Part shown: positions 505 to 21,151 of the stretch, piece by piece
Layout of the letters: each line of letters opens with the position of its first letter
Numbering within the stretch: the stretch's first letter is position 1
Source: Desulfatiglandales bacterium
Lineage (GTDB): Bacteria; Desulfobacterota; DSM-4660; Desulfatiglandales; Desulfatiglandaceae
DNA: 64,000 nucleotides
Direction of reading: 5' to 3'
NCBI GenBank assembly: GCA_963662465.1
Contig: OY759599.1
Coordinates: 7,104,001-7,168,000, forward strand
Position numbers and translations under genes: made by a program
Notes under the pieces: generated by a model
The model's input: only the letters and a program-made list of their open reading frames with translations
Database searches by the model: none
What the model was told of the DNA's origin: nothing

Positions 505-724
505 AGGCGTTCCTTAATGCAACTTTGAAGGACCATCAATGCCTGTTCATAAAACAATTCCTGAAAATATAAGTCAGCTGAAACCAGAGGAGAGGCATCC
601 CACCAGCACTTTTACAGGGTTCCTGATGGGAGGGGTGTGAGAAGCGCGTCCATAAGTTTATAAGAAACTCGCGCAAGATGCAAAGAAGGAAGGGCTCTGA
701 GCGTAGCTACAAATAACTGGTAAT

Positions 725-1062
725 CTATCCGCACGCAACCAGATAAAAACATAGATGCTTTGCTATTTGATTTGAATCCTTTTCACTCAGATGTCCTATC
801 TTTTTCTGCAATAGTCGGTTATCGAGCGTGAAAAACTTAAACCGGACCAGACATGGGAGGCGTAATCCAGCATCGGCATAATCGCTGATTTGGGAGTCGC
901 CTGGCCATGCAGGCTCTTTTTTCGTGATTATCATGGCAAGGATTGTGTGGTTACTTCTGTTAAATTCCATGTTACTGAGCACGACCGCAGGGCGGTTTTT
1001 CGTTTAGGTCTATCAACAAATGGGAAAGGGACGGTGACCACATCATATTGGCTACAGATCAT
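725..1062 (-). pseudogene. PemK/MazF-family toxin, frameshifted
   Basis: MICSQYDVVTVPFPFVDRPKRK is in one frame and NRPAVVLSN...TLDNRLLQKKIGHLS in another; one A is missing from the A5 run near 996-1000. Confidence 0.8.
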
Positions 1063-1279
1063 TGAAGGCCTCTTCATCCTCAAGGCTGTTCCACTCTTCA
1101 AGTGTTTCTGCCACTGCTGCGTGGTAAGCTGCGTCAAACGGCTCGACCCTTTTAAGTTTTACACTTTTTCCCTGCAGTTCATAGGCTACTATATCGCCAG
1201 GTTCTATGCCTATAGCCCTCCTTAGGTCCGCTGGTATGGTTACCTGCCCTTTTGTAGATAGTCTGCTCACACGTTGCAT
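1052..1279 (-). CDS. AbrB/MazE/SpoVT-family antitoxin
   Basis: SRLSTKGQVTIPADLRRAIGIEPGD motif; overlaps the toxin start. Confidence 0.9.
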   Translation of the reverse strand: MQRVSRLSTKGQVTIPADLRRAIGIEPGDIVAYELQGKSVKLKRVEPFDAAYHAAVAETLEEWNSLEDEEAFNDL

Positions 1280-1366
1280 TCGATTCACCTCTTTACTCCC
1301 CGGTCTTTACTCTTTACAGTAAAGATGTTCTCCGCATTTTGTTTTGTCAACAAAAAAGTGCAGGTG

Positions 1367-1735
1367 GGGACATCCATAAGTTTATAAGAAACTCGCGCAA
1401 AGACGCTAAGGCGCAAAGATAGAAGCTGAAACCCAAAGGAGAAAGATAGAGGGCTGAAGGCAGAGGACAGAAGGCGGAGGGCAGTGTTGGGTTTTGGGTT
1501 TTGGGTTTTGAGTTTTGAGTTGAAGGGAAAGGACGGAGGGCAGTGTTGGGTTTTGGGTTTTGGGTTTTGGGTTTTGAGTTGAAGGGAAAGGGCGGAGGGC
1601 AGTTTTGAGTTTTGGGTTTTGAGTTTTGGGTTGAAGGGAAAGGGCGGAGGTCGGAGGGGAGTGTTGAGTTTTGAGTTTTGGGTTTTGGGTTTTGAGTTGA
1701 AGGGAAAGGGCGGAGGGCGGAGGTCGGATGTCGGA
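1367..1735 (+). repeat. Junction motif plus mixed GGACAGA / TTTTG(G/A)G heptamer arrays
   Basis: GGGGACATCCATAAGTTTATAAGAAACTCGCGCAAAGACGC followed by tandem heptamers. Confidence 0.9.
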
Positions 1736-1815
1736 GGAGTGAAAGAGCAAGAAGAAGGAAAGCTGGACGGATTGAAGATTTTTCCAGACGAGAGCCCGCT
1801 TTAGGAGGGGGATGG

Positions 1816-2084
1816 TTATTCAAATAACTCAGCATGGGACCCCACGCGTGCAGGTCTGAGTTCGAATTCAGTGATCGAATAGATCAACAGCCAGTCCGGC
1901 TCCACATGGCATTCTCGAAAATCCCGCCACTCCCCCTTGAGTTTATGATCCCTGAATTCCGGCGGCAGCGCTTTTGGAATAGCGAGCGTTTCAAGGACAT
2001 CCCGTAATTTGGTAAGATTCCGTCCTTGGCGACCGGCTCTTTTCAAGTCCTTTTTGAACCGCGCGGTGGGTCGAAGGGCAACAT
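1816..2084 (-). pseudogene. yafQ: YafQ-family toxin, probably frameshifted just after the start
   Basis: RFKKDLKRA...RDHKLKGEWRDFRECHVEPDWLLIY...GSHAELF; the coupled ATG (TGATG) at 2084 is one base out of frame. Confidence 0.75.
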
Positions 2085-2341
2085 CAGAGCCCGCAATCCT
2101 TGAACAGCTCTGTTACGCTCTGATACCTTTTGCCTTTGCCCACGCGGGCATCATGCATGGCTTCGATCGTTTCCCGATTTGGGATGCGTGCGTCAAAAGG
2201 AAGCCCGCGGCTGGCAATGATCTGCCTATAAAACAGCTCATGAGCGGAAGAAATGGGGATCCCCAACTCCTTTAGAATGGATTTCGCCCTTTCCTTAATT
2301 TCCGGGGCAGGTCGGGCGGTTGCCCTTGATGTCTTGGCCAT
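2084..2341 (-). CDS. RelB/DinJ-family antitoxin
   Basis: EIKERAKSILKELGIPISSA...GLPFDARIPNRETIEAM. Confidence 0.9.
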   Translation of the reverse strand: MAKTSRATARPAPEIKERAKSILKELGIPISSAHELFYRQIIASRGLPFDARIPNRETIEAMHDARVGKGKRYQSVTELFKDCGL

Positions 2342-2444
2342 GTTGTATTCCTCCACTGTCAGTTTTCCACTAAAAGACATGGTACACCTTGCCGGTCGCG
2401 GGGTCAAGTTCATACCTGTATATATGGATGCCAGTACATCCGCA

Positions 2445-2660
2445 GCGGTGGACGGTGGACGGTGGACGGAGGACAGAGGACAGAGGACAGAGGACAGAAG
2501 ACAGAAGACGGAAGGGCGGAAAGGTGAGAAGTGGCAGAGGCGCAGAGAAGAGAGGACAGACGACGGAGGACAGAGGTCGGAGGTCGGATGTCGGAGGACA
2601 GGGGACGGAGGTCGGAGGTCGGAGGTCGGAGGACAGAGGACGGAAGACGGAGGACAGATG
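2445..2660 (+). repeat. GGACAGA/GGACGGA/GGTCGGA heptamer array
   Basis: Direct tandem heptamers. Confidence 0.9.
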
Positions 2661-2685
2661 GTTGAGAAGGTGTTAGCGTCAGCGA

Positions 2686-2976
2686 TCAGTGAATGAACTG
2701 ATGAAGTTCTTTGTAAAAGTTCTCGCGAGAACCTAAAAAGACAACCAAAACCTCCTTTTTCAATTCATCTGTGTCATAGACTGCCCGATATTGGACACCA
2801 CCGTGAGCCATTTTCAAGTAGCGAAGTTCGGTCTTATAACCCTTAAGAGGATGCCCCTTTTTATCAGGATCGGCAGCCAGTTCCCAAAGTTGTGAAGTGA
2901 TCTCGCTCCGAACATGCCTGTCAAGCTTGTCATATTGTTTCCTGGCTTTCGGTGCCAGAAATATCTCGTATTTCAT
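2686..2976 (-). CDS. RelE/ParE-family toxin
   Basis: LAPKARKQYDKLD...YRAVY...VFLGSRENFY. Confidence 0.85.
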   Translation of the reverse strand: MKYEIFLAPKARKQYDKLDRHVRSEITSQLWELAADPDKKGHPLKGYKTELRYLKMAHGGVQYRAVYDTDELKKEVLVVFLGSRENFYKELHQFIH

Positions 2977-3164
2977 GCCAGATTTTTGAGTTGGACACTC
3001 TCCCCCCGCTGATGGCTTTTCCAGGCGTCATTACGCATGGCATCTAAAGCCTTGGCATAATCTTTATTAAGAGAGAACAAGAGGCGTTCTCTGTCTTCCT
3101 CAGTCAGCCTTGAAGCCGCTTCGTAAATTTTTTCGTATGTAAGTTCAATGGCTATTTCCAGCAT
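2973..3164 (-). CDS. Putative antitoxin
   Basis: Small ORF coupled (ATGA) upstream of RelE. Confidence 0.7.
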   Translation of the reverse strand: MLEIAIELTYEKIYEAASRLTEEDRERLLFSLNKDYAKALDAMRNDAWKSHQRGESVQLKNLA

Positions 3165-3495
3165 TTTTCGATGATCTCCTGCTTTTATGATTTGCCCAAA
3201 AAATAGGATTAATGTTGCACTAAAAACTCACCTGGAAAGTCTTTTATTGAAATTGATATTGGCCTATTGTTTTCAGGGTGTCAAGTGTATAAACCTGAGA
3301 CATAGAATTATAAAATGGTCTCGCGCCCCGGTTAAATAAGTGCAAAAGAAATTTCACTGGGCAGGCAAAGACGCCAAGGCGCAAAGATAGAAGCCTGACG
3401 TCAGAGGACAGAGGACGGAGGACGGAGGACAGAGGGCGGAGGTTGGATGGCCTTTCCCTACTGGGCATGGAGATATGGAGGCAGTGTCTCAGGGG

Positions 3496-3861
3496 TTAGT
3501 CGATCTCGAGTGCCAGCTTAAAGGCTTCGACAACCTCTTCCATTCGGCGTGGCGGCATTGTGCCAACCAACTGGGGTTTTTTTGTCTTAGGATCGTAAAC
3601 TCTTTTAGGATCCAGGGAGCGCATCTGGAAACAGAGAAATACTGTATCTTTGGGAAGGCCCGTCTCAGCTGATGGCACACGTACATTTGTGGGGTAGTCT
3701 CTTGGCACATTCCGCGCATCTGCGCCCACTACAACTGACACAACGAGCGGTTGTTTATTTATGGCGTCGCTTGATATCACGAGGACTGGTCTGCGGCCCG
3801 CCTGCTCCCGACCTTTAATCGGGTTCAAATTTACCAGATAAATTCCGCCGCGCTTGATCAT
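3496..3861 (-). CDS. PemK/MazF-family toxin
   Basis: RGGIYLVNLNPIKGREQAGRRPVLVIS...QMRSLD. Confidence 0.92.
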   Translation of the reverse strand: MIKRGGIYLVNLNPIKGREQAGRRPVLVISSDAINKQPLVVSVVVGADARNVPRDYPTNVRVPSAETGLPKDTVFLCFQMRSLDPKRVYDPKTKKPQLVGTMPPRRMEEVVEAFKLALEID

Positions 3862-3864
3862 AAT

Positions 3865-3990
3865 TCACAAACCATCGTTTTCCGCTTCCGTAAACTCCTC
3901 GGACAAAACAGAACACACATCCCGGATTGCAGGGTCATCGGCCATTTCAGCCATAGCTGTTTCAAATTGATATTTTTTTTGACGTTTTGT
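3865..3990 (-). pseudogene. 5'-truncated antitoxin remnant
   Basis: KRQKKYQFETAMAEMADDPAIRDVCSVLSEEFTEAENDGL* directly upstream of the toxin. Confidence 0.55.
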
Positions 3991-4077
3991 GAAATAAGGG
4001 AATGGGGGACGTAGCTACCTTTGTAACCTTATTTTAGATCTCGCGCAGAGGTGAAGGGACGGTGCGACAGAGAGGAA

Positions 4078-4404
4078 TTATGCCGCAGGGCCTTGGTCTC
4101 TCTGCCGGAACCGGCTGAGACGAACATCTCCTCTGGGCAGATGAGCGATCAATTCAAGCTCGCCGCCAAGCGCTTCTATGATGCGGCTTAGAGTGCCAAT
4201 TTGCATATCCTGCTGGGATTCTATCTTTGACAGGGTTGGCTGCTTGATATTCAATGCTGCCGCCAGATCCTTTTGCGTCAATCCCATCTGTTTGCGAATC
4301 TCGGCCAGGAGCATATCCGCCATGATTTCTTTTGCCTTCATCTCGGCCCTGGCCACGCGTTCCGGGGGCATTTTCGCTTCCAGTTCTTTAAAGTTATGCG
4401 CCAT
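4078..4404 (-). CDS. HigA-like XRE HTH antitoxin
   Basis: LAEIRKQMGLTQKDLAAALNIKQPTLSKIE. Confidence 0.9.
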   Translation of the reverse strand: MAHNFKELEAKMPPERVARAEMKAKEIMADMLLAEIRKQMGLTQKDLAAALNIKQPTLSKIESQQDMQIGTLSRIIEALGGELELIAHLPRGDVRLSRFRQRDQGPAA

Positions 4405-4760
4405 TAGCTTTTACCGTCCTTTTTGATTTCTCGTAAATGCACATCCATGATCTTATCCGCCAGTGGAATCATCCGGTCATAAAACCGCTTATCATCGCTC
4501 TTGGATCCCCCGATCAGGAGGATCGCTTTTCGACGGGGGTCGAAGGCGTAGAATGTCCGCACCGGGTCGCCATGTATTTGGGTTCTAAGCTCCTTCATGT
4601 TCTTGTGTCTGGATTTCTTGACAGTGTCGGCATGGGGCCGCCCAAGAGCGGGACCCAGAACCTGTAGCAACTTTACACTGACAGTGAGGGATTCCTGTTC
4701 GTTTTCCGTCAGGGTTCCCCACCATTCACCGAACTCATCTGTAAATTCAACATCCCACAT
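4404..4760 (-). CDS. HigB/Gp49-like RelE-superfamily toxin
   Basis: GPALGRPHADT...MKELR...YAFDPRRKAILLIGG. Confidence 0.9.
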   Translation of the reverse strand: MWDVEFTDEFGEWWGTLTENEQESLTVSVKLLQVLGPALGRPHADTVKKSRHKNMKELRTQIHGDPVRTFYAFDPRRKAILLIGGSKSDDKRFYDRMIPLADKIMDVHLREIKKDGKS

Positions 4761-4785: not shown

Positions 4786-4944
4786 GCTTGTCAAGCTGTA
4801 TGTGGGTCGTGCAGCAATTGTGAGGGACTCGGGGACATCCATAAGAAAATAAGAAACTCTCGCCCAGAGACGCAGAGAAGGGACAGATGTCCGATGTCAG
4901 ATGTCCGATGTCTGATGTCAGGGGGTGCAGGTCAGAGGCCGGAC

Positions 4945-5490: not shown

Positions 5491-6165
5491 ATTCAATAGG
5501 ATAGCGTGGCCCGACCCCACTATCCGCATCGGTTTGATGCGGTGCGGGTGATTTTGCCTCGGTATGGGATTTGTGTGGCTTAGGGGTTCTTGCGCCCAGT
5601 AAAACAAAAACAAAAGAGGTTTCACCCCGGTTGAACACCCTAGAAGGGAACCCGGTTCAACGGGGCAGGGAGGGCGAAGGTCGGAGCGCGGGAAGTGCAG
5701 AGGTTGAAACTGTGGAGTGGGACGTTCTAATCTTTTGGATTTGTTTATTTTGTTGAAGATGGTACAGTCAGTGGTGCGGATGAGGGAGGATAAACAGTAG
5801 GGAGTCGAAAACCCGGGGTGTTTGATGGCTGGTGAGTGATAGACCATGAACCAGGTGGCTGACGAATGGAGGAAGAAAATGGACCGTGAAAAGAGCCTCG
5901 ACGTTGAAAAAGTAAAGCGCTTTTGGTTAGAGGAGGCGGTAGAGTCCCTTCGTGTAGCTGAGCATCTTGTAGAAAAAGAAGATTTTTCATATGCGCTATT
6001 TTTTGGTCATTTGGCTCTGGAAAATGTGATGAAAGGTGTTTGTGTGAAGAGGCGCAAAGAGCACGCTCCGCCTGTGCATAACCTGGTGAGGCTTGCTGGG
6101 GTTGCAGGAATTGCGCTCGATGAGGAAACGGAGAAAGCTCTCCTTATGATAACCGGTTTTAACAT

Positions 6166-6412
6166 CAATACCCGTGAATGAATAGTATTCATGCCGATTT
6201 TCAACCATGAAGAACATGAAGGTCATGAAGAAAAAGGGTTTCAAGGACTGCCTGACCGACGGTTGTCGCCTTTTTAGCCATTGCAGTCCGGATGTTTTCT
6301 TTTTTTAAAGGCCTTCATGTTCTTCATGTTCTTCATGGTGACTATTAAGAGTGTTGCATTCTAAGATCTTATGTCTTTCAACTATGTGAACAGGATTCAT
6401 TCACGGGTATTG
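6166..6412. mobile_element. 247-bp MITE, copy 1
   Basis: TIR CAATACCCGTGAATGAAT...ATTCATTCACGGGTATTG; internal inverted CATGAAGAA 9-mers; same as 7978-8224. Confidence 0.85.
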
Positions 6413-6595
6413 GGTTTAGGTACACTGCAATGTCACGCCCTTACAGGGCTCTGCATCAGAGGCTTGCCCATTCAGTCGCGAGGTGCGAACCGTAGAATGT
6501 TGAACAAGGAATTCGGTTTCTCCTTACATTTCATCGTTATCAGTGATTTGCTGATTAATTTCATATTGTCCGGCCATTCGGTAATCCCAGTCTGC

Positions 6596-7090
6596 TTAAG
6601 TCAGTTTCAATACGGCAATGATAACCCCGGACATGGTCACGGTCAGTCCAAAAGACCAGACCATGAAACGATCTATCCTTTTGGTGAGGCTTTCAAAGCG
6701 AGCATCCATCTGCTCAAAGCGTTTATCTACTTGTTCAAAGCGCTTATCTACCTGCTGAAACCGCCTGTCCACCTGCTCGAAGCGCTTATCCATATCCTCG
6801 TGCATCTGCTCGAAGCGCTTGTCCACTTGCTCGAAGCGCTTGTCCACTTGCTCGAAGCGCTTATTCATATCCTCACGCATTTCTTCAAAGCGCTTGTCCA
6901 TCAGGTCGAAGCCCTGCTTCATCAAATCACGCTGGTTTTTTAATTCTTCTTCCACCCGAACCATGCGTTCACGAAGCTCTATCTCATAGACGTGAGGTGG
7001 TTTGGAAAAACTCTGCATCTGCAGCCAACCACTCAGGTTACTGCGCACATACTCACCGATGGCTTCATAATCTTCCTGTGCAATAGGCAT
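6596..7090 (-). CDS. Coiled-coil protein with (V/M)DKRFEQ heptad repeats and a C-terminal TM helix (DUF1640-like)
   Basis: 21-bp tandem coding repeats; hydrophobic C-terminus. Confidence 0.8.
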   Translation of the reverse strand: MPIAQEDYEAIGEYVRSNLSGWLQMQSFSKPPHVYEIELRERMVRVEEELKNQRDLMKQGFDLMDKRFEEMREDMNKRFEQVDKRFEQVDKRFEQMHEDMDKRFEQVDRRFQQVDKRFEQVDKRFEQMDARFESLTKRIDRFMVWSFGLTVTMSGVIIAVLKLT

Positions 7091-7478
7091 TTTGATTGCT
7101 CCTCATTGTTGTTGGGGCCATGTTGATGTTACGACCCTTATAATCTAAGGCGGCAAACCGCAGTTTTAAGTTTTAAGTTCTTCTAGCAATGAATTTCTGT
7201 TGTTATATTGATCATCTTGTTTTTTTCGAAGCATTTAATCTGTAAGTCACTAAAGCATGTTTTCCTGAACATTTGAAAAGCGTTAGGTTTCCTGAACTCT
7301 TTCATTACATTAACGAGCATAACCTTTCCCAAAACTGAAGTCAATCCTATGAAATTCCAGCCGCATTTTCTATCCTTTCCAAGGATCAGTTTACAAAAAA
7401 TCCCCAAAGAACCCTGAAGTCAGATTCACGCTTTTTTTGCTTTATATCAATGGCTTGGCTTGGTCCGCCCCACAATTA

Positions 7479-7634
7479 GGGAACTGGAAGAAAATACGAC
7501 GCATATCATGCAGAATTTTTGTTCGTCTTCAAGGCGTGATGGCAGGTGCATAGTGGGCTATGTGCCTGTTATCACAACGTAGAAGACGAGCAAAAAGGCA
7601 AACAGGATGCGTAGATTATTTTTTGGAAGGTCCC
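7479..7634. mobile_element. 156-bp palindromic MITE with TTA flanks
   Basis: Imperfect TIR GGGAACTGGAAGAAAATA/TATTTTTTGGAAGGTCCC, nested inverted repeats, TTA on both sides. Confidence 0.65.
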
Positions 7635-7760
7635 TTACATCAATTGTCCCAATCACCCAATCATCTGGTTTGCAAAATTTATAAAAATATCGGCATCCTT
7701 CATTTTCCAGTTTACACTTTTATCCCCATGCATTTCGTTTCCAAACATGAAACTCCCCCC

Positions 7761-7786
7761 AGAGACAAGGCATGCCTTGTCTCTAC
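7761..7786 (-). repeat. GTAG-type REP palindrome
   Basis: GTAGAGACAAGGCATGCCTTGTCTCT. Confidence 0.7.
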
Positions 7787-7890
7787 AGCAGCCGCGTGCC
7801 TTTGTACAACCTGCTTTTGTGTTCCATGAGAATGTACCCGCCAAAATCCCAGTACAAACACCCCGCCGTCAAGCAAAAACCCATTTTGCT
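7787..7890 (-). pseudogene. Internally deleted inverted relic of an Rpn cassette
   Basis: Similar to about 14599-14640 (upstream region) and 14908-14955 (YILMEHKS). Confidence 0.6.
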
Positions 7891-7977
7891 CTTCGCTGTC
7901 GTATATTCCTTTTACGATCTCTTTTTATTTCTCGCGCAAAGACGCCAAGACGCAAAGTTTGGGCTTGGTCCTAACTT

Positions 7978-8224
7978 CAATACCCGTGAATGAATAGTAT
8001 TCATGCCGATTTTCAACCATGAAGAACATGAAGGTCATGAAGAAAAAGGGTTTCAAGGACTGCCTGACCGACGGTTGTCGCCTTTTTAGCCATTGCAGTC
8101 CGGATGTTTTCTTTTTTTAAAGGCCTTCATGTTCTTCATGTTCTTCATGGTGACTATTAAGAGTGTTGCATTCTAAGATCTTATGTCTTTCAACTATGTG
8201 AACAGGATTCATTCACGGGTATTG
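7978..8224. mobile_element. 247-bp MITE, copy 2 (direct orientation)
   Basis: Same sequence as 6166-6412. Confidence 0.85.
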
Positions 8225-8330
8225 GGTTTAACATTGAATCTCGGTATCCCGATTTCAAAAGATCTTTTCGAACAAAATGCACTCAAGCATTCACAACAGA
8301 GCAGATGAGTGAAATAAAGAGGATTTTCGA

Positions 8331-8672
8331 ATGGCTGCGATCTCATCTGAAATAGAAGCGATTATCCGAAGATTCATAACCCTGCTTCAAAAGGAAAGAC
8401 GTATATCGAGAGTTTTTCTTTACGGTTCCCATGCAAAAGGAATTGCAGGAGAATGGAGCGATATCGATCTTGCGGTTGTGAGCCCTGACTTTTCAGAAGA
8501 TTTGTTCGAAGAGCGCGTTGGACTGATGAGACTGAGCCTACACATAGACGAACGTATTGAACCAAGTCCCTTCAGACCGGAAGACTTCAATGAGAATGAC
8601 CCACTGGTAAGCGAAATTAACGAATCGGGAATTGAGATTGCGTGGATTGGGGAAAAGCGGGACATCCATTAG
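8331..8672 (+). CDS. Minimal nucleotidyltransferase (MNT) antitoxin
   Basis: LYGSHAKG...SDIDLAVV; overlaps the HEPN end. Confidence 0.9.
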   Translation: MAAISSEIEAIIRRFITLLQKERRISRVFLYGSHAKGIAGEWSDIDLAVVSPDFSEDLFEERVGLMRLSLHIDERIEPSPFRPEDFNENDPLVSEINESGIEIAWIGEKRDIH

Positions 8673-8721
8673 TTTATAAGAAACTCGCGCAAAGACGCCA
8701 AGGCGAAAAGATAGAAGCCTG

Positions 8722-8855
8722 ACGTCAGAGGACGGAGGGCAGAGGGCAGAGGACAGAGGACGGAGGACTGAAGACAGAGGACGGAGGGCAGAGGACGGAG
8801 GACAGAGGACAGAGGACTGAAGACAGAGGACGGAAGACGGAGGGCAGAGGACGGA
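8722..8855 (+). repeat. GGACAGA/GGACGGA array upstream of a four-helix-bundle gene
   Basis: Tandem heptamers; complement at 9330-9443. Confidence 0.9.
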
Positions 8856-8892
8856 TATTGGAGAAGAGGCAAAACATAAAGGGAAAAGGACC

Positions 8893-9297
8893 ATGAGTGA
8901 TGCGATCCGTAGTTTTAGAGATTTGAAAGTTTACCAGAAATCATTTTCACTCCAGCAGAAGATTTTTGAATTAACCAAACGTTTTCCAAAAGAAGAACTT
9001 TACTCTCTTACCAATCAGATTCGGAGGTCTTCTCGTTCTATAGGTGCGAATTTGGCAGAAGCCTGGCATAAGAGGCGATATGTCGCCCATTTTGTCAGTA
9101 AACTATCGGATTCTGATGGAGAACAAGCTGAGACGCAGCACTGGCTTGAAACCGCCTTGGCGTGTCAATACATCGCTGAGGATCTTCACACTGAACTGAT
9201 GAATCAGTGTAAGGAAATAGGTCGAATGTTGGGGAAAATGATGGCCAATCCTGAATCCTTCTGCAAGCGCAATAGTGGCTCTACCAAAAGCTCTTGA
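8893..9297 (+). CDS. Four-helix bundle protein (23S rRNA IVP/S23-like, TIGR02436 type)
   Basis: SFRDLKVYQKS...FPKEELYSLTNQIRRSSRSIGANLAEA...AETQHWL. Confidence 0.92.
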   Translation: MSDAIRSFRDLKVYQKSFSLQQKIFELTKRFPKEELYSLTNQIRRSSRSIGANLAEAWHKRRYVAHFVSKLSDSDGEQAETQHWLETALACQYIAEDLHTELMNQCKEIGRMLGKMMANPESFCKRNSGSTKSS

Positions 9298-9329
9298 TCC
9301 TTCAGTCATCCGCCATCCTTAAGCTGTCT

Positions 9330-9443
9330 TTCGTCCTCCGTCTTCTGTCCTCTGTCCTCAGTCTTCCGTCCTCCGTCTTCTGTCTTCCGTCCTCCGTCTT
9401 CTGTCTTCCGTCCTCCGTCCTCCGTCCTCCGTCCTCCGTCCTC
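9330..9443 (-). repeat. Inverted TCCGTCC/TCTGTCT array downstream of the four-helix-bundle gene
   Basis: Reverse complement of the 8722-8855 unit. Confidence 0.9.
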
Positions 9444-9526
9444 TAGGGGCCAGAGGGGCAGAGGAAAGAAGATAAAAAGGTTTGAAGGTGTGTAATCTTG
9501 AGATTCGGTTTACCTGGAGATATTAG

Positions 9527-10366
9527 ATGAGCAAAGAAGTTGAAATAAGGCACCACCGGACTTTTGAGAGCCTGAAACAGACCCACAATCATGGGGTGGA
9601 GTTTTGGTTCGCCCGGGATTTGCAGCCGGTTTTAGACTACAGTAGCTGGGAGAAGTTTAGGCGCGTCATCCACAAGGCGATGAAGGCTTGCGGGAATTCA
9701 GGACAAGCTGAGGCCGACCATTTTTCCCATGTGGTGAAAATGGTCCGAATCGGATCCGGTGCAGAGCGGCAGATAGAGGATTATGCGCTTTCTCGCTATG
9801 CGTGTTATTTGATTGTTCAGAACGCAGATCCCTCCAAACCTGTCATTGCCAACGGGCAAACGTATTTCGCCATGCAGACAAGGCGACAGGAGCTGGCGGA
9901 TGACCAGGTATTCCAGCAGCTTAAAGAAGACGAAAAGCGTCTTTTTCTCCGCAATGAGCTGAAAGAGCATAATAAGCAACTTGTGGCTGCTGCCCGGCAG
10001 GCCGGGGTGGAGACGACGCTTGATTTCGCTATCTTCCAGAATCATGGTTACAAGGGGCTTTATGGGGGCCTGGACGCGAAAGGCATTCATCGGCAAAAGG
10101 GTTTGAAAAAGAGCCAGAAAATTTTGGATCATATGGGAAGTACCGAGCTGGCTGCAAATCTCTTCCGCGCAACGCAGACTGATGAGAAACTACGCCGGGA
10201 AAATGTTCAGGGTAAATCAAGAGCCAACCAAACCCATTACGAGGTCGGCGCCAAGGTCCGTCAAACCATCAAAGAGCTGGGGGGCGCCATGCCAGAGGAG
10301 CTTCCCAGTCCGAATAGAAGCCTCAAGCAGATCGAAAAAAAGCAAAAGAGTGTCGAAAAAGACTGA
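9527..10366 (+). CDS. dinD: DNA damage-inducible protein D (BRO-like)
   Basis: FWFARDLQPVLDY...LSRYACYLIVQNADPSK...ILDHMGSTELAANLFRATQT. Confidence 0.92.
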   Translation: MSKEVEIRHHRTFESLKQTHNHGVEFWFARDLQPVLDYSSWEKFRRVIHKAMKACGNSGQAEADHFSHVVKMVRIGSGAERQIEDYALSRYACYLIVQNADPSKPVIANGQTYFAMQTRRQELADDQVFQQLKEDEKRLFLRNELKEHNKQLVAAARQAGVETTLDFAIFQNHGYKGLYGGLDAKGIHRQKGLKKSQKILDHMGSTELAANLFRATQTDEKLRRENVQGKSRANQTHYEVGAKVRQTIKELGGAMPEELPSPNRSLKQIEKKQKSVEKD

Positions 10367-11079: not shown

Positions 11080-11360
11080 ATGCAAGCAGTAGAAGTTGAG
11101 GCCAACTTTAGCGCAGAGGACGCAGGACGGAGGACGGAAGACAGAAGGGTGAGAAGGTTAGAGGATTAGAGGGCATAAGACAAAGATAGTCTCGCGCAGA
11201 GACGCAGAGACGCAGAGAAGAGAGGAAAAGACGGTGAGAAGTGGCAGAGGTTCCATACAGCTAATACCAATAATGAATAAGCAGCCCAGCGACCCCAGCA
11301 CCTGTACCATTTTTGAGTTTTCTGCAATCCTTCCTTTCGATTGCCCACCAGAGTAACAAC

Positions 11361-11638
11361 CACCTCCTCATCACACGAGATACCAAAACAAATGAACCCA
11401 TTAAATCCTGAAGAGACGAAACATGTTGGCGGAATTTCCCCCTTTCTGGGTGTTGTGGATTTCTGTTTGCTGAATCTGGCATTTTTTCTGCTGAATTACT
11501 GGAAACGGGGATCTTTTGAGTTGGCCCCAAAATATGGGAAGCTGCTGCTGGCCTTTTATGGTGTCTGGTTCCTGGTTTCCCTGGCCAATAAGAAATTTCA
11601 GTGGTGGGAATACGCGGGGTTGGGTAGAGGGCTGTGGA
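11361..11638 (+). pseudogene. Diverged 5' copy of the sugar transferase gene
   Basis: Aligns with 18077-18357. Confidence 0.9.
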
Positions 11639-11783
11639 GGCCCTGAACTGCAGTTTTGGGTTTTGAGTTTTGGGTTTTGGGTTAGGGAACTAGGGAACTG
11701 CAGTTTTGGGTTTTGAGTTTTGGGTTTTGGGTTAGGGAACTAGGGAACTGCAGTTTTGAGTTTTGAGTTTTGGGTTTTGGGTT

Positions 11784-12152
11784 ATGAGTGAAAGGAAGAT
11801 AGACGAGCGGACTTTTGAGTTTGCTTTACTGGTTGTGGATGGTTATAAATTTCTTCTGGGGAAAAAGGAGTTTGTGCTTTCGAAGCAGTTTTTAAGGGCT
11901 GGTACTTCGATCGGTGCGAATGTGACGGAGGCCCAAGCTGCCCAAAGCAGGAAAGATTTCATTTCTAAAATGGCCATCGCTTCCAAGGAAGCCAGAGAAA
12001 CGCTATATTGGATCAGACTGTTAAAAAGGTCCGGTTTTTTCAAGGGATATGCAAAAGTAAATATCCTGGAAAGCGAGATTTCCTCAATCATAAATATTCT
12101 CACGAAAATCGTGAAAACCACAAAGGAACAGGAACCGAAAGAGAAACCTTAA
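11784..12152 (+). CDS. Four-helix bundle protein, flanked by TTTTGGG / CCCAAAA arrays
   Basis: LSKQFLRAGTSIGANVTEAQAAQSRKDFISKMAIASKEARETLYWIRLL. Confidence 0.92.
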   Translation: MSERKIDERTFEFALLVVDGYKFLLGKKEFVLSKQFLRAGTSIGANVTEAQAAQSRKDFISKMAIASKEARETLYWIRLLKRSGFFKGYAKVNILESEISSIINILTKIVKTTKEQEPKEKP

Positions 12153-12249
12153 AACTGTAGTTTCTTCCACAACCCAAAACCGTTTTTGGGAACGATACGA
12201 ACGGACGCTGAGCGTCCACAGTGCATTCCCACGCTGGAGCGTGGGAACG

Positions 12250-14152
12250 GTGCGCCTGTGAAGGCGCTTTATCAGTGCGGTGAAAGTCCGTACCGGAGTA
12301 TGCCATAGCTCCGTAGCCGAAGGTAACTGCGTCGCCGCGAGGCGGGGTGGAGAGCAACCGGAGGCGAAAAGTCAGTCCGTAGGATGACGAACCCGATTCG
12401 GTGTCATGTGGTGGCGAGCCTACCGTTCCATGGTGAAGCCTGAAACTCACAGACCACGCTGTAATGGCGGTTAAAGCGATGGTTTGACGGCATGGTATGT
12501 TTGGGGTCGGAATGACTGGAAGGTAAAGCGAGATAAGCAGGGAGACCTGTCTCTTGGGGTGACAGGAGGCAGGAGTCAGAGTCCTCATAGTACCGTAGCG
12601 ACAGAACGGTCCTGCTAACAAGGCTTACGGCGTGAGACCAGTACCCGCCGCCTGCGTCGGATACCGGGTTGTGAAAAGCGCGGATAGCAAAACCGTGCCG
12701 AGGGAAGGAGGATAGGAAGATAGATACGGAAAGGTCATATAGATGCAGCTAAATCAAGCAGTCTCGGCAGTGTTGGAAACAACTAAACGCGAGGCAGAAA
12801 CCCGATGGGATTGGGTGGAAGCATCGGTGTGGACGGAACGTATGTTGGCAGCCCTGGGTAACGGGGTGAAAGGTGGTAAATGGTACAGTTTGATGGATAA
12901 GGTGTTCGCCTTGTCGACGCTGGAAGCGGCTTGGGGACGTGTCAAAGCCAATAAAGGAGCGGCAGGGATAGACCGTATCAGCATAAAGCGCTTTAAGGAG
13001 CAGGCGGAGAAATACCTTGCCGAACTGCATGAAACCTTGAAAGCGGGAACGTACCGACTGGAAGCGGTAAAACGGGTATACATTCCGAAAAGCGACGGCA
13101 AACAACGCCCGCTGGGGATACCCACGGTCAAAGACCGGGTAGTGCAGGCAGCGGTTAAAATGGTTATGGAGCCCATATTCGAGCATGAATTTCTGCCGAT
13201 GAGTTACGGCTTCAGGCCGCAAAGAGGTTGCAAGGACGCGTTGCGAGAAGTAGACGCGCTTATTAAGGAAGGCTACACCTTCATACTGGACGCCGACCTG
13301 AAAAGTTACTTTGATACGATTCCGCACGATAAGCTGATGCAACAAGTCGAAATGCGCATCAGCGACGGCAAATTGCTCAATCTGATTCAAATGTTCCTGA
13401 AACAGGACGTGATGGACGGCTTGGAAAGATGGACACCGACGGGTGGTTCGCCACAAGGGGCGGTAGTCAGCCCCTTGCTTGCGAATATTTACCTGCATCC
13501 TCTTGACAGCCTGATCGCGGAATCAGGTATGCGGATGGTGCGTTACGCGGACGACTTTGTTATCCTCAGCCGCAGTCAAACGGAAGCGGAGAATGCTTTG
13601 CAAAAGGTACGGGAGTGGGTACAGGCTAATGACCTGAGCTTACACCCGGACAAGACGCATCTTGGCGACTGTCGACAAAAGGGTCAGGGATTTGAATTCC
13701 TGGGATACCGGTTTGAGGCAGGAAAGCGCTGGATACGCAGTAAAAGCCGTAAAGCCCTTCGTGATAAAATCCGGGAAGAGACCCGGCGCAAACGTAGCGG
13801 AAGTATGGAAAGCATCATTGATGATCTGAACCCCATGCTTGAAGGCTGGTTTGGTTACTTCAAACACGCCTACCGCACTGAGTTTGCGGCGGTGGATAAG
13901 TTTGTCCGCCGACGCTTACGCGCCGTATTATTGCGTCGTAACAAACGCAAGGGCTGGGGCAAAAGCCTTGAAGCCCACCGCCGCTGGCCGAATGCCTACT
14001 TCGCGAAAATCGGGCTTTTCACTATGCATGAGGCCCGGTTAGCAGCGTGCCGATCCCGATGAGGAAACTATCGACCGGAGAGCCGTGTGCGGGAGAACCG
14101 CATGCACGGTTCGGAGGGAGGGGAGAGCCAAGAGGCTCTTTCCTACCCCTAT
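12250..14152 (+). mobile_element. Group II intron
   Basis: 5' GTGCG; domain V GAGCCGTGTGCGGGAGAACCGCATGCACGGTTC; domain VI ending CCCCTAT; encodes an RT. Confidence 0.92.
12743..14062 (+). CDS. ltrA: Group II intron reverse transcriptase/maturase, no endonuclease domain
   Basis: RPLGIPTVKDR, PQGAVVSPLLANIYL, RYADD, X domain GWFGYF. Confidence 0.95.
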   Translation: MQLNQAVSAVLETTKREAETRWDWVEASVWTERMLAALGNGVKGGKWYSLMDKVFALSTLEAAWGRVKANKGAAGIDRISIKRFKEQAEKYLAELHETLKAGTYRLEAVKRVYIPKSDGKQRPLGIPTVKDRVVQAAVKMVMEPIFEHEFLPMSYGFRPQRGCKDALREVDALIKEGYTFILDADLKSYFDTIPHDKLMQQVEMRISDGKLLNLIQMFLKQDVMDGLERWTPTGGSPQGAVVSPLLANIYLHPLDSLIAESGMRMVRYADDFVILSRSQTEAENALQKVREWVQANDLSLHPDKTHLGDCRQKGQGFEFLGYRFEAGKRWIRSKSRKALRDKIREETRRKRSGSMESIIDDLNPMLEGWFGYFKHAYRTEFAAVDKFVRRRLRAVLLRRNKRKGWGKSLEAHRRWPNAYFAKIGLFTMHEARLAACRSR

Positions 14153-14159
14153 AGAGGAA

Positions 14160-14395
14160 CTCAAAACTGTTTTTTTCCACAACCCAAAACCCAAAACCTA
14201 AAACCCAAAACTGTTTTCTTCCACAACCCAAAACCCAAAACCTAAAACCCAAAACTGTTTTCTTCCACAACCCAAAACCCAAAACCTAAAACCCAAAACT
14301 GTTTTTTTCCACAACCCAAAACTCAAAACCCAAAACTCAAAACCGTTTTTTTCCACAACCCAAAACCGCCTTTTTAATACCCAAAACTCAAAACT
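14160..14395 (-). repeat. CCCAAAA/CTCAAAA array (inverted partner of 11650-11783)
   Basis: Tandem heptamers with higher-order units. Confidence 0.9.
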
Positions 14396-14675
14396 GCTCT
14401 AATTACGTTCGAATATCTGCTGAATTTTGGGGAAGCGTTGATGAAACAGGGGATTACTCGGGTGGTAAATAACCTGGAGGAATGATCTCGCGCAGAGGCG
14501 CAGAGGCGCAGAGAAAAGAAGGGCGAAATAATGTTGGCAACCTTGTAAACTTACTCAGGGCGGTGGTCCACATACCGGAAGAATCCCTACACCGAAACGC
14601 AAAAGGGTTTTTTGCTTGACGGCGGGGTGTTGGTACCTGGTTGCCATTTGATAAGATTTGGGTTACTATCGAATC

Positions 14676-15677: not shown

Positions 15678-15969
15678 TGCCAACTGAAATTCCAAACCCC
15701 ACCCAAAACATAGTACCCCTTCCTTTCCCTTTACCTATTTTAGCCCAAAGCTATTTTGGGTAATCTGTTCCAATTATCTACTCACCTTGGCCTTGAGCTT
15801 ACTCGTAATGGAATGGGACGTTGTTCCGTAATTCCGTTTTTTGACCACGAATCACACAGAGGACGGGGGACAGAGGACGGAGGACGGAGGGCAGAAGTCA
15901 GAGGGCAGAGGACGGATCGCAGGTCTCAGGAATTGGGCATAAAAACAGCCATTTCAGAATCTTCGGTTC

Positions 15970-16135
15970 CATTCCACATTCGATATTATTGAGGCGGCGA
16001 AAAAGGGGTTGTTGCCGGATAAGATGATGATTAATACTCATTCGCAGAGGTGGACGGATAATCCGATTGAGTGCACGAAGGAGTTGGTTTGGCAGAATGT
16101 GAAGAATGTTGTGAAACGTATTGTTGTTCGCAGAT
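15970..16135 (+). pseudogene. 3' fragment, probably the same protein family as 4945-5152
   Basis: STFDIIEAAKKGLLPDKMMINTHSQRWTDNPIECTKELVWQNVKNVVKR. Confidence 0.55.
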
Positions 16136-16236
16136 TACTATCCGCAGATTACGCAGATTGACGCAGATTAGGGTTCTCACGCAAAGACGCCACGACGCAA
16201 AGAAGGGAGTCGGAATAATCTGAAACCCCCGGACAA

Positions 16237-16988: not shown

Positions 16989-17330
16989 CTACAATGTGGG
17001 TCTGGCAAGTTTCTGGGAAACAACGGCATTTAACGAGATCCCGGCTTTGGCAGCCTCGATAGCAAGGGCTCGGTGTACCCGACGATCAATTCGTACATTG
17101 AATTGTCCGCTGTATTGCTTTCTTGCCGGTGCAACGGGAACCGCTTCCCCGTGTTTTTGGTAGCTTTCCTTCACACCTTCCCAAGCGGTCTGTAGTTCGT
17201 GCAGAGCGTCTTCCGGCGACTCCCCAAATGCGGATACGTTCGGCAGTTCAACAAAATGCGCGAGATATTCGCCATCGTCGTCCAAAAACACATTGATGGT
17301 GTATCCATCGAATGGATCAAACCTTTTCAT
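16989..17330 (-). CDS. hicB: HicB-family antitoxin
   Basis: AFGESPEDAL...YSGQFNVRIDRRVHRALAIEAAKAGISLN. Confidence 0.92.
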   Translation of the reverse strand: MKRFDPFDGYTINVFLDDDGEYLAHFVELPNVSAFGESPEDALHELQTAWEGVKESYQKHGEAVPVAPARKQYSGQFNVRIDRRVHRALAIEAAKAGISLNAVVSQKLARPTL

Positions 17331-17562
17331 TTTTAGTCTCCTCATATTGCACCACCTGCTCTACCTGGTAGCCCTTTGCCTTTCCACTCCTGCCTTCCTG
17401 GATGGGAAGCCGGCGCCGTTTTGGGGAATACCAAATTTGGTGATTGCCCTTCTGATGATCGAATATCCACCCAGCTTGACGTAAAAGTGTCTGAAATTCA
17501 CCGAAGGAGAGGTCCTTCGGGTTGTTAATGGCACGGGCTAAAAGTTTTTCACGTTTAGTCAT
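17317..17562 (-). CDS. hicA: HicA-family toxin
   Basis: LSFGEFQTLLRQAGW...KGNHQI...GKAKGYQVEQV. Confidence 0.88.
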   Translation of the reverse strand: MTKREKLLARAINNPKDLSFGEFQTLLRQAGWIFDHQKGNHQIWYSPKRRRLPIQEGRSGKAKGYQVEQVVQYEETKNEKV

Positions 17563-17803
17563 GGTGTAACTATATGCAGTTACCAACCAAAAGTCAAGAG
17601 AAGGGATGGGGGTCGGGTCATGAGCCGATCGGAGTTGCTGGGCCGGCTTTGTTTCTGCGGGTTTGAGATTGTGTAACTCGCGCAGAGACGCCAAGGCGCA
17701 GAGAAAAGAAGGGTTTTTTGGTTTTTCTTTGCGTCTCTGCGTCTCTGCGCGAGAATAAAATAAGTTGATAAGGGACATAAAAAGACTGGGGAGGGGGGTA
17801 GTT

Positions 17804-18107: not shown

Positions 18108-20105
18108 ATGAACCCATTAAATCCTGAAGAGACGAAATATGTCGGCGGAATTTCGCCCGCTGTTCTGGGTGTTGTGGATTTCTGTTTACTGAACCTGGCG
18201 TTTTTTCTGCTCAATTACTGTAAAAGGGGATCTTTTGAGTTGGCCCCAAAATATGGGAAGCTGCTGCTGGCCTTTTATGGGGTCTGGCTGGTGATTTCCC
18301 TGGCCAATAAGAAATTTCAGTGGCGGGAATACGCAGGGTTGGAAAAGGGGCTGTGGACCCTGGTCCGATGCGGGCTGTATCTGGCCTACTGTGTGGCCGT
18401 CATGGTGGTGATCATGGGCCTTTATGCCTATTCCAGGGGGCAGGTGTTTGGGACCTGCCTGGTGTTTGTGGGACTGGAAGGGGTCGTGTTCGGGGGGGCG
18501 TATTTCCTGCTTCGGCGGTCCAATGGGGGGGACGTAAGGCGGGAACCATTGATGGTGGCGCGCCCTGCCCGAATTTCCTGGCGGCTGGCGGTGGTGGATT
18601 TTGTGCTGGTGGGGGTTTCCTTTTTAGTGGTCAATTATCTGAAACGGGACAGCTTTCATATCCTTCCGGATTATGAGAAACTGCTGCTGTTGATCTATGG
18701 GTTGTGGTTTGTCTGTTCGCTGGTCACCCGGAAGTTTGAACATCTGAATTACATGAATTACTACCATGGCCTCTGGCCGTGGATCAAGGCGATGATTCTG
18801 TTGGCCTTTTCCCTGGGGGTGATGGTTTTTCTGTTTCGGTTTCAGTATTTTTCAAGAACCCAGGTGTTTGGGCCCATGGTCTTGCTGATGGTGTTGGAGA
18901 CGGTTTTCTACCGGTTTTATTTTGAGCGCAAAAAACGGGTCGGCGCCGAGGGAGATATTGAATCTGCTGATACAGTGTCCCGCATCCTGAAGCAGGAACC
19001 GTTGACGGTGGAAACGGATCTGGAGGCCCTGAAGCAGGCGTTTTTGTCGCCCATTCGGGAGCGGTTGCGGGATCGGTACCTGAAAAATCATTCGGGGCTG
19101 TTTTCGCTCATGGACCGGTCCATGGATCTGGAGGGCATTTTAAGGGCGGAAACGGCCATTCGAAACAGCAGTGAAATGCTCTATTCCGATACCGCGGGCG
19201 AGCGATACATGCGGTTGTTCGTTAATCTGCGGAAGATCAATGATATTCGGTATATCAACCAGTATTTTCTGGCGGTGCATAATTTGTTGATTCCCGGGGG
19301 GTACCTGGTGGGGCGCGCCCATACCCTTGCCACCCATCGGGAATGGATGATCCGGAAGTTTCCGCGGCAGTTGGCCAATGCCCTGTACGCAGTGGATTTT
19401 CTGTTTAACCGGGTGATGCCCAAACTTCCATGGGTCAAGCAGGTCTATTTTTCCGTGACCAGGGGGAAGAATCGGGTCATGAGCCGATCGGAGTTGCTGG
19501 GCAGGCTTTGTTTCTGCGGGTTTGAGATTGTGGGGGAAGAAGATATTGACGAACGGTTCTGCTTTGTGGCGCGAAAGGCCAAAACCATCTCCAGGGTGGA
19601 AAACCCGTCTTATGGTCCCCTGGTGGGGTTTAACCGGATCGGGGCCGGCAATAAACCCATTCGAACCTATAAATTCCGGACCATGCACCCCTATTCCGAA
19701 TTTCTGCAGGATTATGTGTATGAGAAAAGCGGCCTTCAAAAGGGGGGAAAGCTGGAGAATGATTTTCGCATTACGGCCTGGGGAAAGGTGATGCGGAAAC
19801 TCTGGCTGGATGAGCTGCCCATGCTGTACAACTGGGTGCGGGGGGAGCTGCAGCTCTTTGGGGTGCGGCCGTTGAGTGCGCACTATTTCAGTTTGTATCC
19901 ACAGGATTTGCAGGAACTGAGGGGGCGGGTGAAGCCGGGGCTGGTGCCGCCGTTTTATGCGGATATGCCGGTGACGTTTGAGGAGATCTGTGAGTCGGAG
20001 CGGCGGTATATTTTGGCTTATTTGGAACGGCCGGTTTGGACTCAGGTGGTTTACTTTTGGAAGGCTTTTTGTAATATTGTGTTTCGGGGTGCGAGGAGCG
20101 GGTGA
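18108..20105 (+). CDS. Bacterial sugar transferase (priming glycosyltransferase) with a duplicated membrane module
   Basis: YKFRTM, DFRITAWGKVMRKLWLDELP, GVRP, KPGL motifs. Confidence 0.9.
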   Translation: MNPLNPEETKYVGGISPAVLGVVDFCLLNLAFFLLNYCKRGSFELAPKYGKLLLAFYGVWLVISLANKKFQWREYAGLEKGLWTLVRCGLYLAYCVAVMVVIMGLYAYSRGQVFGTCLVFVGLEGVVFGGAYFLLRRSNGGDVRREPLMVARPARISWRLAVVDFVLVGVSFLVVNYLKRDSFHILPDYEKLLLLIYGLWFVCSLVTRKFEHLNYMNYYHGLWPWIKAMILLAFSLGVMVFLFRFQYFSRTQVFGPMVLLMVLETVFYRFYFERKKRVGAEGDIESADTVSRILKQEPLTVETDLEALKQAFLSPIRERLRDRYLKNHSGLFSLMDRSMDLEGILRAETAIRNSSEMLYSDTAGERYMRLFVNLRKINDIRYINQYFLAVHNLLIPGGYLVGRAHTLATHREWMIRKFPRQLANALYAVDFLFNRVMPKLPWVKQVYFSVTRGKNRVMSRSELLGRLCFCGFEIVGEEDIDERFCFVARKAKTISRVENPSYGPLVGFNRIGAGNKPIRTYKFRTMHPYSEFLQDYVYEKSGLQKGGKLENDFRITAWGKVMRKLWLDELPMLYNWVRGELQLFGVRPLSAHYFSLYPQDLQELRGRVKPGLVPPFYADMPVTFEEICESERRYILAYLERPVWTQVVYFWKAFCNIVFRGARSG

Positions 20106-20304
20106 TGTTTAACTTGCGCAGAGACGGAAAAGCAGTTTTGGGTTTTGAGTTTTGGGTTTTGGGTTTTGGGTTAGGGAACTGCAGTTTTGGGTTTTGGGTT
20201 TTGAGTTTTGGGTTAGGGAACTAGGGAAAAGCAGTTTTGGGTTTTGGGTTTTGAGTTTTGGGTTAGGGAACTAGGGAACAGCAGTTTTGGGTTTTGGGTT
20301 TTGG

Positions 20305-20490
20305 GTGAAAGGAAGATAGATGCGCGGACTTTTGAGTTTGCTTTACTGGTTGTGGATGGTTATAAATTTCTTCTGGGGAAAAAGGAGTTTGTGCTTTCGA
20401 AGCAGTTTTTAAGGTCTGGTACTTCGATCGGTGCGAATGTGACGGAGGCCCAAGCTGCCCAAAGCAGGAAAGATTTCATTAAAACTGTAG
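20305..20490 (+). pseudogene. Third, deleted copy of the four-helix-bundle gene between TTTTGGG/CCCAAAA arrays
   Basis: Same deletion junction as the 16667 copy. Confidence 0.85.
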
Positions 20491-20742
20491 TTTCTTCCAA
20501 AACCCAAAACCCAAAACCCAAAACTCAAAACCGCCTTTTCAATGCCCAAAACCCAAAACCAAAAACCGCCTTTTCAACCGTTGTGGCCGAGGGTTCTCTC
20601 GCCCCGGTTAAATAAGGGCCAAAGAGATTTAACTGGGTAAACAAAAAGGCGCAAAAGACGCAAAGACGAATTGAAGATGAAATCTGAGAGTGTAAAAGCT
20701 GGGAGGCAATTGGATCCAGGGTCTGAAGGAGGTGATTGATCG

Positions 20743-21057
20743 ATGCCCCAAATAACGGTTGAAGTACCCAAGAATATAAATGATCTCGTGGGTGAAGTTG
20801 GTAAGGCAATTTACATTGAGACACTGAAAGAGGTTGCGTTTAAGCGGAAGGCCTACAGCAAAAGGGAATTAGAGGATTTAAAAAAGAAGATATGCTTTTT
20901 TGAGCGAAAGTACAATGCCTCATGCGAAGAATTTCTCTCGGATGTGCCGGATACTGTTCAGGGACATGATGATTGGATTGAATGGACCTATTTGATCAAC
21001 GCAGCAGAGGATTTATCAAATAAAATTAAAACATTATCCTTTTTGATTGGTAAATGA
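20743..21057 (+). CDS. Putative antitoxin-like small protein
   Basis: FERKYNASCEEF...HDDWIEW; coupled to a downstream ORF. Confidence 0.6.
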   Translation: MPQITVEVPKNINDLVGEVGKAIYIETLKEVAFKRKAYSKRELEDLKKKICFFERKYNASCEEFLSDVPDTVQGHDDWIEWTYLINAAEDLSNKIKTLSFLIGK

Positions 21058-21151
21058 TGCAGGATAGCCTGAGAAACACGATAGATGCATATGCGGATAT
21101 TATCGAAGGTGTGGAAGACCTGAAGATCGCTCAGAAAAATGTGGTCTCCAG
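21054..21151 (+). pseudogene. 5' stub of the partner gene, cut by the IS
   Basis: MMQDSLRNTIDAYADII..., interrupted at the TIR; I found no continuation in the window. Confidence 0.5.

Follow-up and report, generated by a model that had tools for sequence, protein, structure and literature searches.

The window, a 64-kb stretch of Desulfatiglandales bacterium DNA (contig OY759599.1, positions 7,104,001 to 7,168,000), contains the 3' end of a 128-kb region (genome 6.997-7.125 Mb) made of polysaccharide-gene fragments, toxin-antitoxin (TA) operons, insertion sequences (ISs) and repeat arms. A first-pass annotation had described its first 21 kb as an integron-like cassette array without attC or intI, in which about ten TA modules plus DinD were punctuated by a co-oriented motif, whose 15-mer is called motif A here. 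Pfam matches were found for MazE/PemK, RelB/YafQ, ParE-like, PemK, Gp49/HTH, HEPN, MNT, DUF2283, HicB and Bro-N genes, but the Rpn gene (Transposase_31) was not a TA gene and the open reading frame (ORF) at 20743 had no Pfam match. Four four-helix-bundle genes or remnants, the group II intron at 12203-14154, a GxxExxY remnant and three sugar-transferase gene fragments had not been listed before (Table 1). The intron was the only Rfam match over 1-21.5 kb, and 23S rRNA was thus not found there.

Allowing up to 2 mismatches, motif A had 11 matches in the window against 0.22 expected, ten on the + strand and one on the - strand (17739-17753). None was found past 20127, in agreement with the reported absence of copies from 42-64 kb. 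Six + copies were exact (1392, 7931, 8684, 11191, 14487 and 17677) and four had 1-2 mismatches (4040, 4859, 16176 and 20113), the arm at 668 was degenerate, and those at 3320 and 20597 were split by a small hairpin insertion; an arm was present at all 13 positions given earlier (4859 instead of 4857). The motif had been described as a 9-bp iteration, which was rejected because its self-match was 0.21 at lag 9 and 0.82 at lag 8, showing an 8-bp period. The only inverted partner in the window was, as previously noticed, that of the copy at 17677, forming a complete hairpin (17677-17753, z -7.8). The leader preceding motif A was an arm of another repeat family (F), which by eye looked like the inverted ends that Y1/RAYT-type transposase genes have elsewhere in the genome. 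A hairpin of the 40-bp class was inserted at the identical point within motif A arms (window 3327-3365 and 20603-20645; also L159, L161 and L167) and a similar small hairpin lay within family H arms, a repeat targeting other repeats.

Motif A is the left arm of a hairpin element that belongs to one clade of GxxExxY (TIGR04256/PF13366) genes and is found across phyla. The intact GxxExxY gene at genome 108653-109036 had motif A hairpins on either side (intact element, 108563-109122). When 80 metagenomic relatives with 70-90% identity were analysed, 71 of the 73 with full flanks had a motif A arm within 130-150 bp of the gene, compared with 9 of 219 control windows. Inverted repeats flanked 71 of 98 GxxExxY genes (a phylum sample and this genome) and 7 of 100 control ORFs. 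The repeat family also tracked the protein tree, with 30 changes against a shuffle mean of 50.8 (minimum, 43) over 75 labelled rows of non-independent kin, the label patterns being hand-made and 23 unlabelled and 16 metagenome rows being left out. Other hairpin elements had the same plan: iterated units of 7-9 bp make up the inverted arms, and these enclose a GxxExxY nuclease, four-helix-bundle or Y1 transposase gene, or nothing at all.

Orthologous sites of the genomes G096 and G056 were found filled or empty of GxxExxY elements (inserts of 458 bp and 598 bp), and at one site the two genomes differed in having either GxxExxY or a four-helix-bundle gene. Motif A inserts of the congener G010 were likewise absent at the same sites in this genome (G000). 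These filled and empty sites indicated that the hairpin elements come and go. Many intergenic spaces differed by hairpin inserts of ~70-600 bp between the congeners G096 C1 and G056 C40 (L315-L321), some with 7-9-bp target duplications.

The invariant residues of GxxExxY were E27, D67, E77-x-K79 and Q91-xxx-Y95, and its structure model (pLDDT 95) showed a minimal PD-(D/E)XK fold, with 3ijm as the best match (Z 8.6, rmsd 3.1, 101 aligned) and Cas4 4ic1 at Z 7.8 (rmsd 4.5, 103 aligned). A Foldseek search with the model gave no match at E <= 0.001, its top matches being Cas4 proteins with E of 1e-3 to 3e-3, and a sequence search of the PDB gave 0 matches. GxxExxY is predicted from these moderate scores to belong to the PD-(D/E)XK superfamily, nearest to Cas4 and restriction-like nucleases. 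The iron-sulfur cysteine cluster of Cas4 proper was not found, no conserved cysteines being among the invariant columns. Literature searches, which did not cover subscription journals, found no paper describing or naming the GxxExxY hairpin element or describing the outward arm polarity reported below, although the supplements of PMC2700814 and PMC2996986 may list some of the repeat families. One of the papers mentioning GxxExxY concerned, in the part considered, a gene beside a reverse transcriptase (RT).

Across the genome, 42 exact copies of motif A were found (29 on + and 13 on -), concentrated in the three polysaccharide regions described below and otherwise scattered. Solo copies elsewhere, at relaxed stringency, numbered 16 on + and 12 on -, some of them probably due to chance. 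The dispersal in both orientations argued against a site dedicated to cassettes. By eye, TA-like pairs adjoined about a quarter of the scattered copies; the leader and motif A arm also lay directly 3' of a near-identical MqsRA-like pair (family assigned by eye) at genome 2549412 and 5522622. The motif was carried by 6 of 40 relatives, and a collection scan yielded at least 124 loci, about half with an inverted partner, of which the 80 titled ones among those listed came from cyanobacteria, Acidobacteria, Verrucomicrobia, Planctomycetes, Bacteroidetes and others. A GxxExxY match lay nearby in only 3 of the 124 listed loci, and most copies are therefore gene-less.

Two loci related to that of the window were found at the genome start and the genome end, each beginning at the 3' end of a transfer-messenger RNA (tmRNA) gene followed by an integrase. 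They shared 12 kb at 99.99% and 10 kb at 99.5% identity, and their cores (~28 and 23 kb) were intact, unrelated polysaccharide gene sets with no match to each other at 85%/300 bp. The locus of G010 sits at a different chromosomal site. Stack pieces common to G000 and G010 were 96-99.7% identical and syntenic core-genome blocks mostly 88-93% (~90%); the pieces being far more alike than the backbone, this points to recent transfer. Cores thus differ between copies with near-identical flanks, flank pieces move between species, and the swapped unit is the polysaccharide core, not the single TA cassette. The repeated fragments of terminal genes were alleles 82-97% identical, and fragments of a beta-CASP metallo-hydrolase flanked the polysaccharide locus. 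At genome 7091680-7092130, a family B-armed GxxExxY element joins the N-terminal and beta-CASP parts of a metallo-hydrolase gene, the middle being missing.

The orientation of solo arms (half-hairpins), counted for ten patterns with close repeats collapsed, was strongly polar around these cores. In the three polysaccharide regions, 56 of 60 solo arms of the 5' stacks pointed left and 77 of 78 of the 3' stacks pointed right, i.e. outward, and the two intact cores had none. In the window's locus, 2 arms were inward and 31 outward on the 5' side and 1 and 27 on the 3' side; the corresponding counts were 1 and 18 (5'), 0 (core) and 0 and 19 (3') in the second locus, and 1 and 7, 0, and 0 and 31 in the third. 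Families D, E, F and H occurred on both sides in opposite orientation, though the polysaccharide genes all read on +, and the polarity persisted in junk up to 90 kb from the centre. Outward arms in G010 were 16 of 16 at the 3' side (1083-1105 kb) and 11 of 12 at the 5' side (1153-1182 kb), a count that left out 1060-1073 kb as an inverted piece of 5'-type stack, and its 48-kb core had no solo arm. G013 C2 and G010 720-765 kb had dispersed arms only, and G112 gave a partial 5' view. The recurring exception was a motif A arm within a fused oxidoreductase/acetyltransferase gene (genome 49386, 8106295 and 7066654; G010 C1 1156114), in frame in two copies. This locus-wide outward polarity of half-hairpins around polysaccharide cores is the new point of this study and was observed in two species of one genus. 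The TA-type genes were biased toward the centre: all 29 TA-type Pfam hits of the 5' stack were on +, none of its 98 minus-strand ORFs had any Pfam hit, and the TA-type modules of the 3' stack were 9 on the minus and 4 on the plus strand. Rho-type polarity, i.e. selection against C-rich arms on the sense strand, was rejected as a cause because the 5' stacks carry such arms, and so was the replication strand, since both orientations occur on one replichore within a locus.

The arms at window 7931, 14487 and 20113 and at genome 7101824 corresponded to full hairpins elsewhere; here, each was broken within its arm or loop and continued into unrelated DNA. In the stack, the ends of paralogous segments lay near an arm in 26 of 45 cases against 20% of random positions, a partly circular test, as the arms themselves are homologous. 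The breaks fell within the arm or at varying distances after it. The proposal that the motif marks junctions of a surface-polysaccharide locus that gains and loses pieces was borne out by these results; its role as the site of an integron-like system was not, because only 8 of the 45 ends were near motif A, which is one of at least six repeat families at such junctions and belongs to GxxExxY genes.

Table 1. Features of the stack in the first 23 kb of the window.
Position	Strand	Feature	Basis
668-686	+	Motif A arm, degenerate, partial leader	
725-1288	-	MazE/PemK TA pair	Pfam
1366-1391	+	Leader: family F arm, like inverted ends of Y1/RAYT-type genes	By eye
1392-1418	+	Motif A solo arm, then heptamer arms D and E to ~1735	
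1816-2341	-	RelB(DinJ)/YafQ TA pair	Pfam
2450-2660	+	Solo heptamer arm, family D	
2686-3164	-	ParE/RelE-like toxin and small upstream partner	Pfam (toxin); partner without Pfam match
3320-3385	+	Motif A arm split by small hairpin insertion, then D arm	
3496-3954	-	PemK toxin and short partner; 97% copy at genome 101371 and 8161037	Pfam (PemK)
4040-4054	+	Motif A arm, truncated, 2 mismatches	
4078-4760	-	Gp49/HTH (HigBA-like) pair	Pfam
4831-4940	+	Leader F, motif A arm (4859), heptamer tract	
5846-8672	+	HEPN gene interrupted by 1.8-kb insert; MNT gene 8331-8672	Pfam (HEPN, MNT)
7931-7960	+	Motif A solo arm; same upstream DNA leads to full hairpin at genome 297174-297256	
8684-8710	+	Motif A solo arm	
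8712-9445	+	Intact four-helix-bundle (PF05635) gene 8893-9297 between inverted heptamer arms	Pfam; RNA fold z -15.6
9527-10366	+	Bro-N/DinD-like gene	Pfam
10603-11079	+	Solo D arm and DUF2283 gene	Pfam (DUF2283)
11191-11218	+	Motif A solo arm	
11361-11645	+	Sugar-transferase gene 5' fragment, ending at E arm	
11652-14396	+	Four-helix-bundle gene 11784-12152 between E arms; right arm split by group II intron	
12203-14154	+	Multi-copy group II intron, RT/maturase 12743-14062	Pfam; Rfam
14414-14524	+	A-clade GxxExxY gene 3' remnant, then motif A arm (14487) broken in loop	
14535-15892	+	Rpn/YhgA-like gene module; 95% copies in both tmRNA-island loci	
15857-16202	+	D arm, last core gene 3' end, family B arm, motif A arm (16176); junction also at genome 85501-85835	
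16236-16985	+	Second sugar-transferase 5' fragment and internally deleted four-helix-bundle element	
16989-17581	-	HicB and putative HicA	Pfam (HicB)
17677-17753		Complete motif A hairpin	
18108-20105	+	Intact bacterial sugar transferase, conserved 3' gene of polysaccharide locus	Pfam
20113-20570	+	Truncated motif A arm joined to E-armed four-helix-bundle remnant	
20597-20670	+	Motif A arm split by small hairpin insertion	
21152-23157	+	Multi-copy IS ending the stack	

The insert of the HEPN gene is bounded by 259-bp direct repeats (6160-6418 and 7972-8230), each with a family C hairpin; between them lies a coiled-coil repeat gene, an arrangement reminiscent of a tiny composite transposon, of which genome 6068756-6070780 (6.07 Mb) carries a 97% copy. 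The group II intron had at least 11 near-identical copies and sits inside the heptamer right arm of a four-helix-bundle element. Further along the window, a 2-kb IS was present three times in 21152-41000, two of the copies being in tandem, together with IS66 and DDE elements, a DUF6079 fragment and a three-integrase (RIT-like) cluster at 36300-39543, and the 1504-aa ORF at 42035-46549 had no Pfam match. At genome 86282-88975 and 8147984-8149128, a 105-bp unit with a heptamer arm was found in ~25 and ~11 tandem copies upstream of a four-helix-bundle gene. Lambda-like prophage genes occupy genome 1-29146 and 8081765-8094116, between the two tmRNA-targeted islands; a tmRNA-targeted island also encodes an AEP-TOTE primase, and at 135.8-138.8 kb there is a SIR2-HerA pair.

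The attC-like scan of window 1-21.2 kb gave 0 candidates, its limited sensitivity being apparent from controls with 14 candidates beside one IntI and 0-2 beside others. Five IntI matches over the cut-off were found in the genome, the nearest at 6.79 Mb (~310 kb off) and none at 6.99-7.13 Mb. The absence of attC and intI stated by the first-pass annotation was corroborated, within that sensitivity, and the integron reading was rejected; nor was there a base-precise crossover. Integrons and CALIN, like the stack, combine numerous TA modules, each with a promoter of its own, within a single hypervariable region, but here there is no attC, adjacent IntI or fixed crossover, genes lie on both strands and the pieces are gene fragments instead of whole cassettes.

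The pile-up of half-hairpins seems to work most like the NIME/dRS3 arrays of Neisseria, dynamic short inverted repeats beside surface-structure genes which, in the part of the source considered, were proposed to raise recombination with foreign DNA and to contain the ends of allele replacements (PMC1797815). Here, however, the repeats are arms of gene-carrying elements, outward-facing halves that bracket whole cores and are interleaved with TA operons and gene fragments. As far as the passages considered go, REP/REPIN-RAYT systems (PMC3116915, PMC3337134) share with GxxExxY a small nuclease gene with cognate repeats, gene-less intergenic hairpins and a repeat family that tracks the protein clade. 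They differ in that the enzyme here is a predicted PD-(D/E)XK Cas4-like protein and not an HUH Y1 transposase, the arms are iterated 8-9-mers and not single palindromes, and the nuclease gene itself is multi-copy and polymorphic; motif A was absent from the displayed flanks of 17 Y1 genes, only the leader (family F) resembling Y1 ends. The element at 8712-9445 recalls, from the portion of PMC4990558 considered, the ORF-bearing intervening sequences (IVSs) of 23S rRNA, in which an S23p/four-helix-bundle gene (PF05635) lies within terminal inverted repeats folding to a long stem, but it is found in mRNA operons and not in 23S rRNA, and its arms are built of heptamers; the part of PMC4679880 considered did not mention four-helix genes. 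Multicopy nucleotide sequences of Geobacter, also Desulfobacterota, are paired heptamer/octamer tracts on opposite strands in non-random intergenic clusters, interpreted as regulator binding sites (PMC2700814, PMC2996986); the GxxExxY link and the locus polarity seen here do not appear in those passages. Swapping of O-antigen and capsule loci, such as Vibrio gmhD-rjg, also involves a variable core between conserved terminal genes, and beta-CASP metallo-hydrolase fragments flank the locus here, but the anchors of the present loci are not cleanly recombined and occur as multiple fragments with cuts at repeat arms.

All these results suggest that the window is the 3' stack of a repeatedly replaced surface-polysaccharide locus. 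We lean towards considering the outward half-hairpins and TA genes as scars of serial core replacement, with ends broken inside hairpins and the TA operons riding along, and find this somewhat probable. Small hairpin elements insert both within the conserved genes at the two ends of polysaccharide loci, first and last, and between these genes. An incoming locus would be joined to the resident one via ends broken within the hairpins flanking its core, either by cruciform fragility or by the element's own nuclease. Each hairpin would keep its inner arm only, so that the arm faces outward, and every round would displace older terminal-gene fragments further outward. Self-promoted TA operons caught in these dispensable stacks may persist by addiction, a retention that follows established type II TA biology. 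It is a more doubtful proposition that GxxExxY proteins are Cas4-like endonucleases which open their cognate hairpins, thereby defining the ends of transferable polysaccharide cores, and form with the tmRNA-targeted islands an undescribed polar system of surface-antigen exchange and gene capture, in whose stacks the order of past swaps could be read outward from the centre. The arms of three unrelated gene families behave alike and, therefore, cutting by GxxExxY is no more likely than a generic fragility of hairpins.

Several observations weigh against serial replacement. At housekeeping sites, too, solo arms are inserted as units already complete, which means that such an arm is not necessarily left by a swap, and G096 and G056 hold many intact elements in a glycosylation island without stacks. 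An inward orientation of the motif A arm within the 5' oxidoreductase gene is common to all four loci. The zone borders for polarity were drawn after seeing the data, many arms copy a few junctions, so that the counts are non-independent, and G010 is a congener. The breakpoint test was equally enriched at 5' and 3' ends and does not indicate which side broke. The window's own locus has no intact core and is full of ISs, and the assembler may have joined two haplotypes to give the pair of tmRNA copies (contamination 3.75%).

An internal pile-up, in which the elements seed local duplications and deletions and those deletions reaching coreward are purged while outward ones are tolerated, would leave outward solo arms without any foreign ends. 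The elements are indeed highly polymorphic and nested in each other, and the 105-bp arm unit is repeated ~25 times in tandem at genome 86-89 kb; however, the polarity extends into junk as far as 90 kb from the centre, in which both directions should be equally neutral, and the fragments are divergent alleles, some nearly identical to pieces of another species, which makes this origin rather unlikely. The reading of motif A as an att-like site, with TA modules as cassettes moved by a recombinase in trans, draws on the strict co-orientation of the motif in the window, on one TA module found twice elsewhere with a terminal family F arm and on the TA-like pairs beside scattered copies. We regard it as highly improbable, because beyond the missing attC and IntI, the distance from arm to junction varies, few segment ends lie close to the motif, which belongs to GxxExxY genes, and the opposite stack has other families in the opposite orientation.

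It seems just as improbable that the arms act as signals at the RNA level, either for protein binding or for RNase III as in the 23S rRNA IVSs, and are kept co-oriented with a long operon. Paired arms do fold to very stable stems around four-helix-bundle genes, intact elements lie in sense between operon genes, and RNase III excision of IVSs is established, to judge from the part of PMC4990558 considered, but a solo arm cannot form a stem, and solo arms change orientation from one side of the locus to the other, whereas all its polysaccharide genes share a strand. Finally, part of the mosaic could be an assembly collage of related strains, for which the contig end lying in a segment shared with the contig start and the CheckM contamination of 3.75% could be argued; G010 has the same layout and common stack pieces, and 94-95% of the words of the window occur in two runs of the sample from which it probably came (not independent support), and we give this explanation the least credence.

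Overall, this is not an integron-like array. The half-hairpins, which come from undescribed GxxExxY, four-helix-bundle and Y1 elements, form a real and strongly polar pile-up around exchangeable polysaccharide cores. If the proposed replacement history is true, it would explain integron-like TA arrays without attC and IntI, and GxxExxY, a very common family of 'hypothetical' genes, would gain a cis-element and a testable activity. The TA-rich, fragmented flanks of O-antigen and exopolysaccharide loci in environmental bacteria would then be readable histories of surface-antigen exchange.

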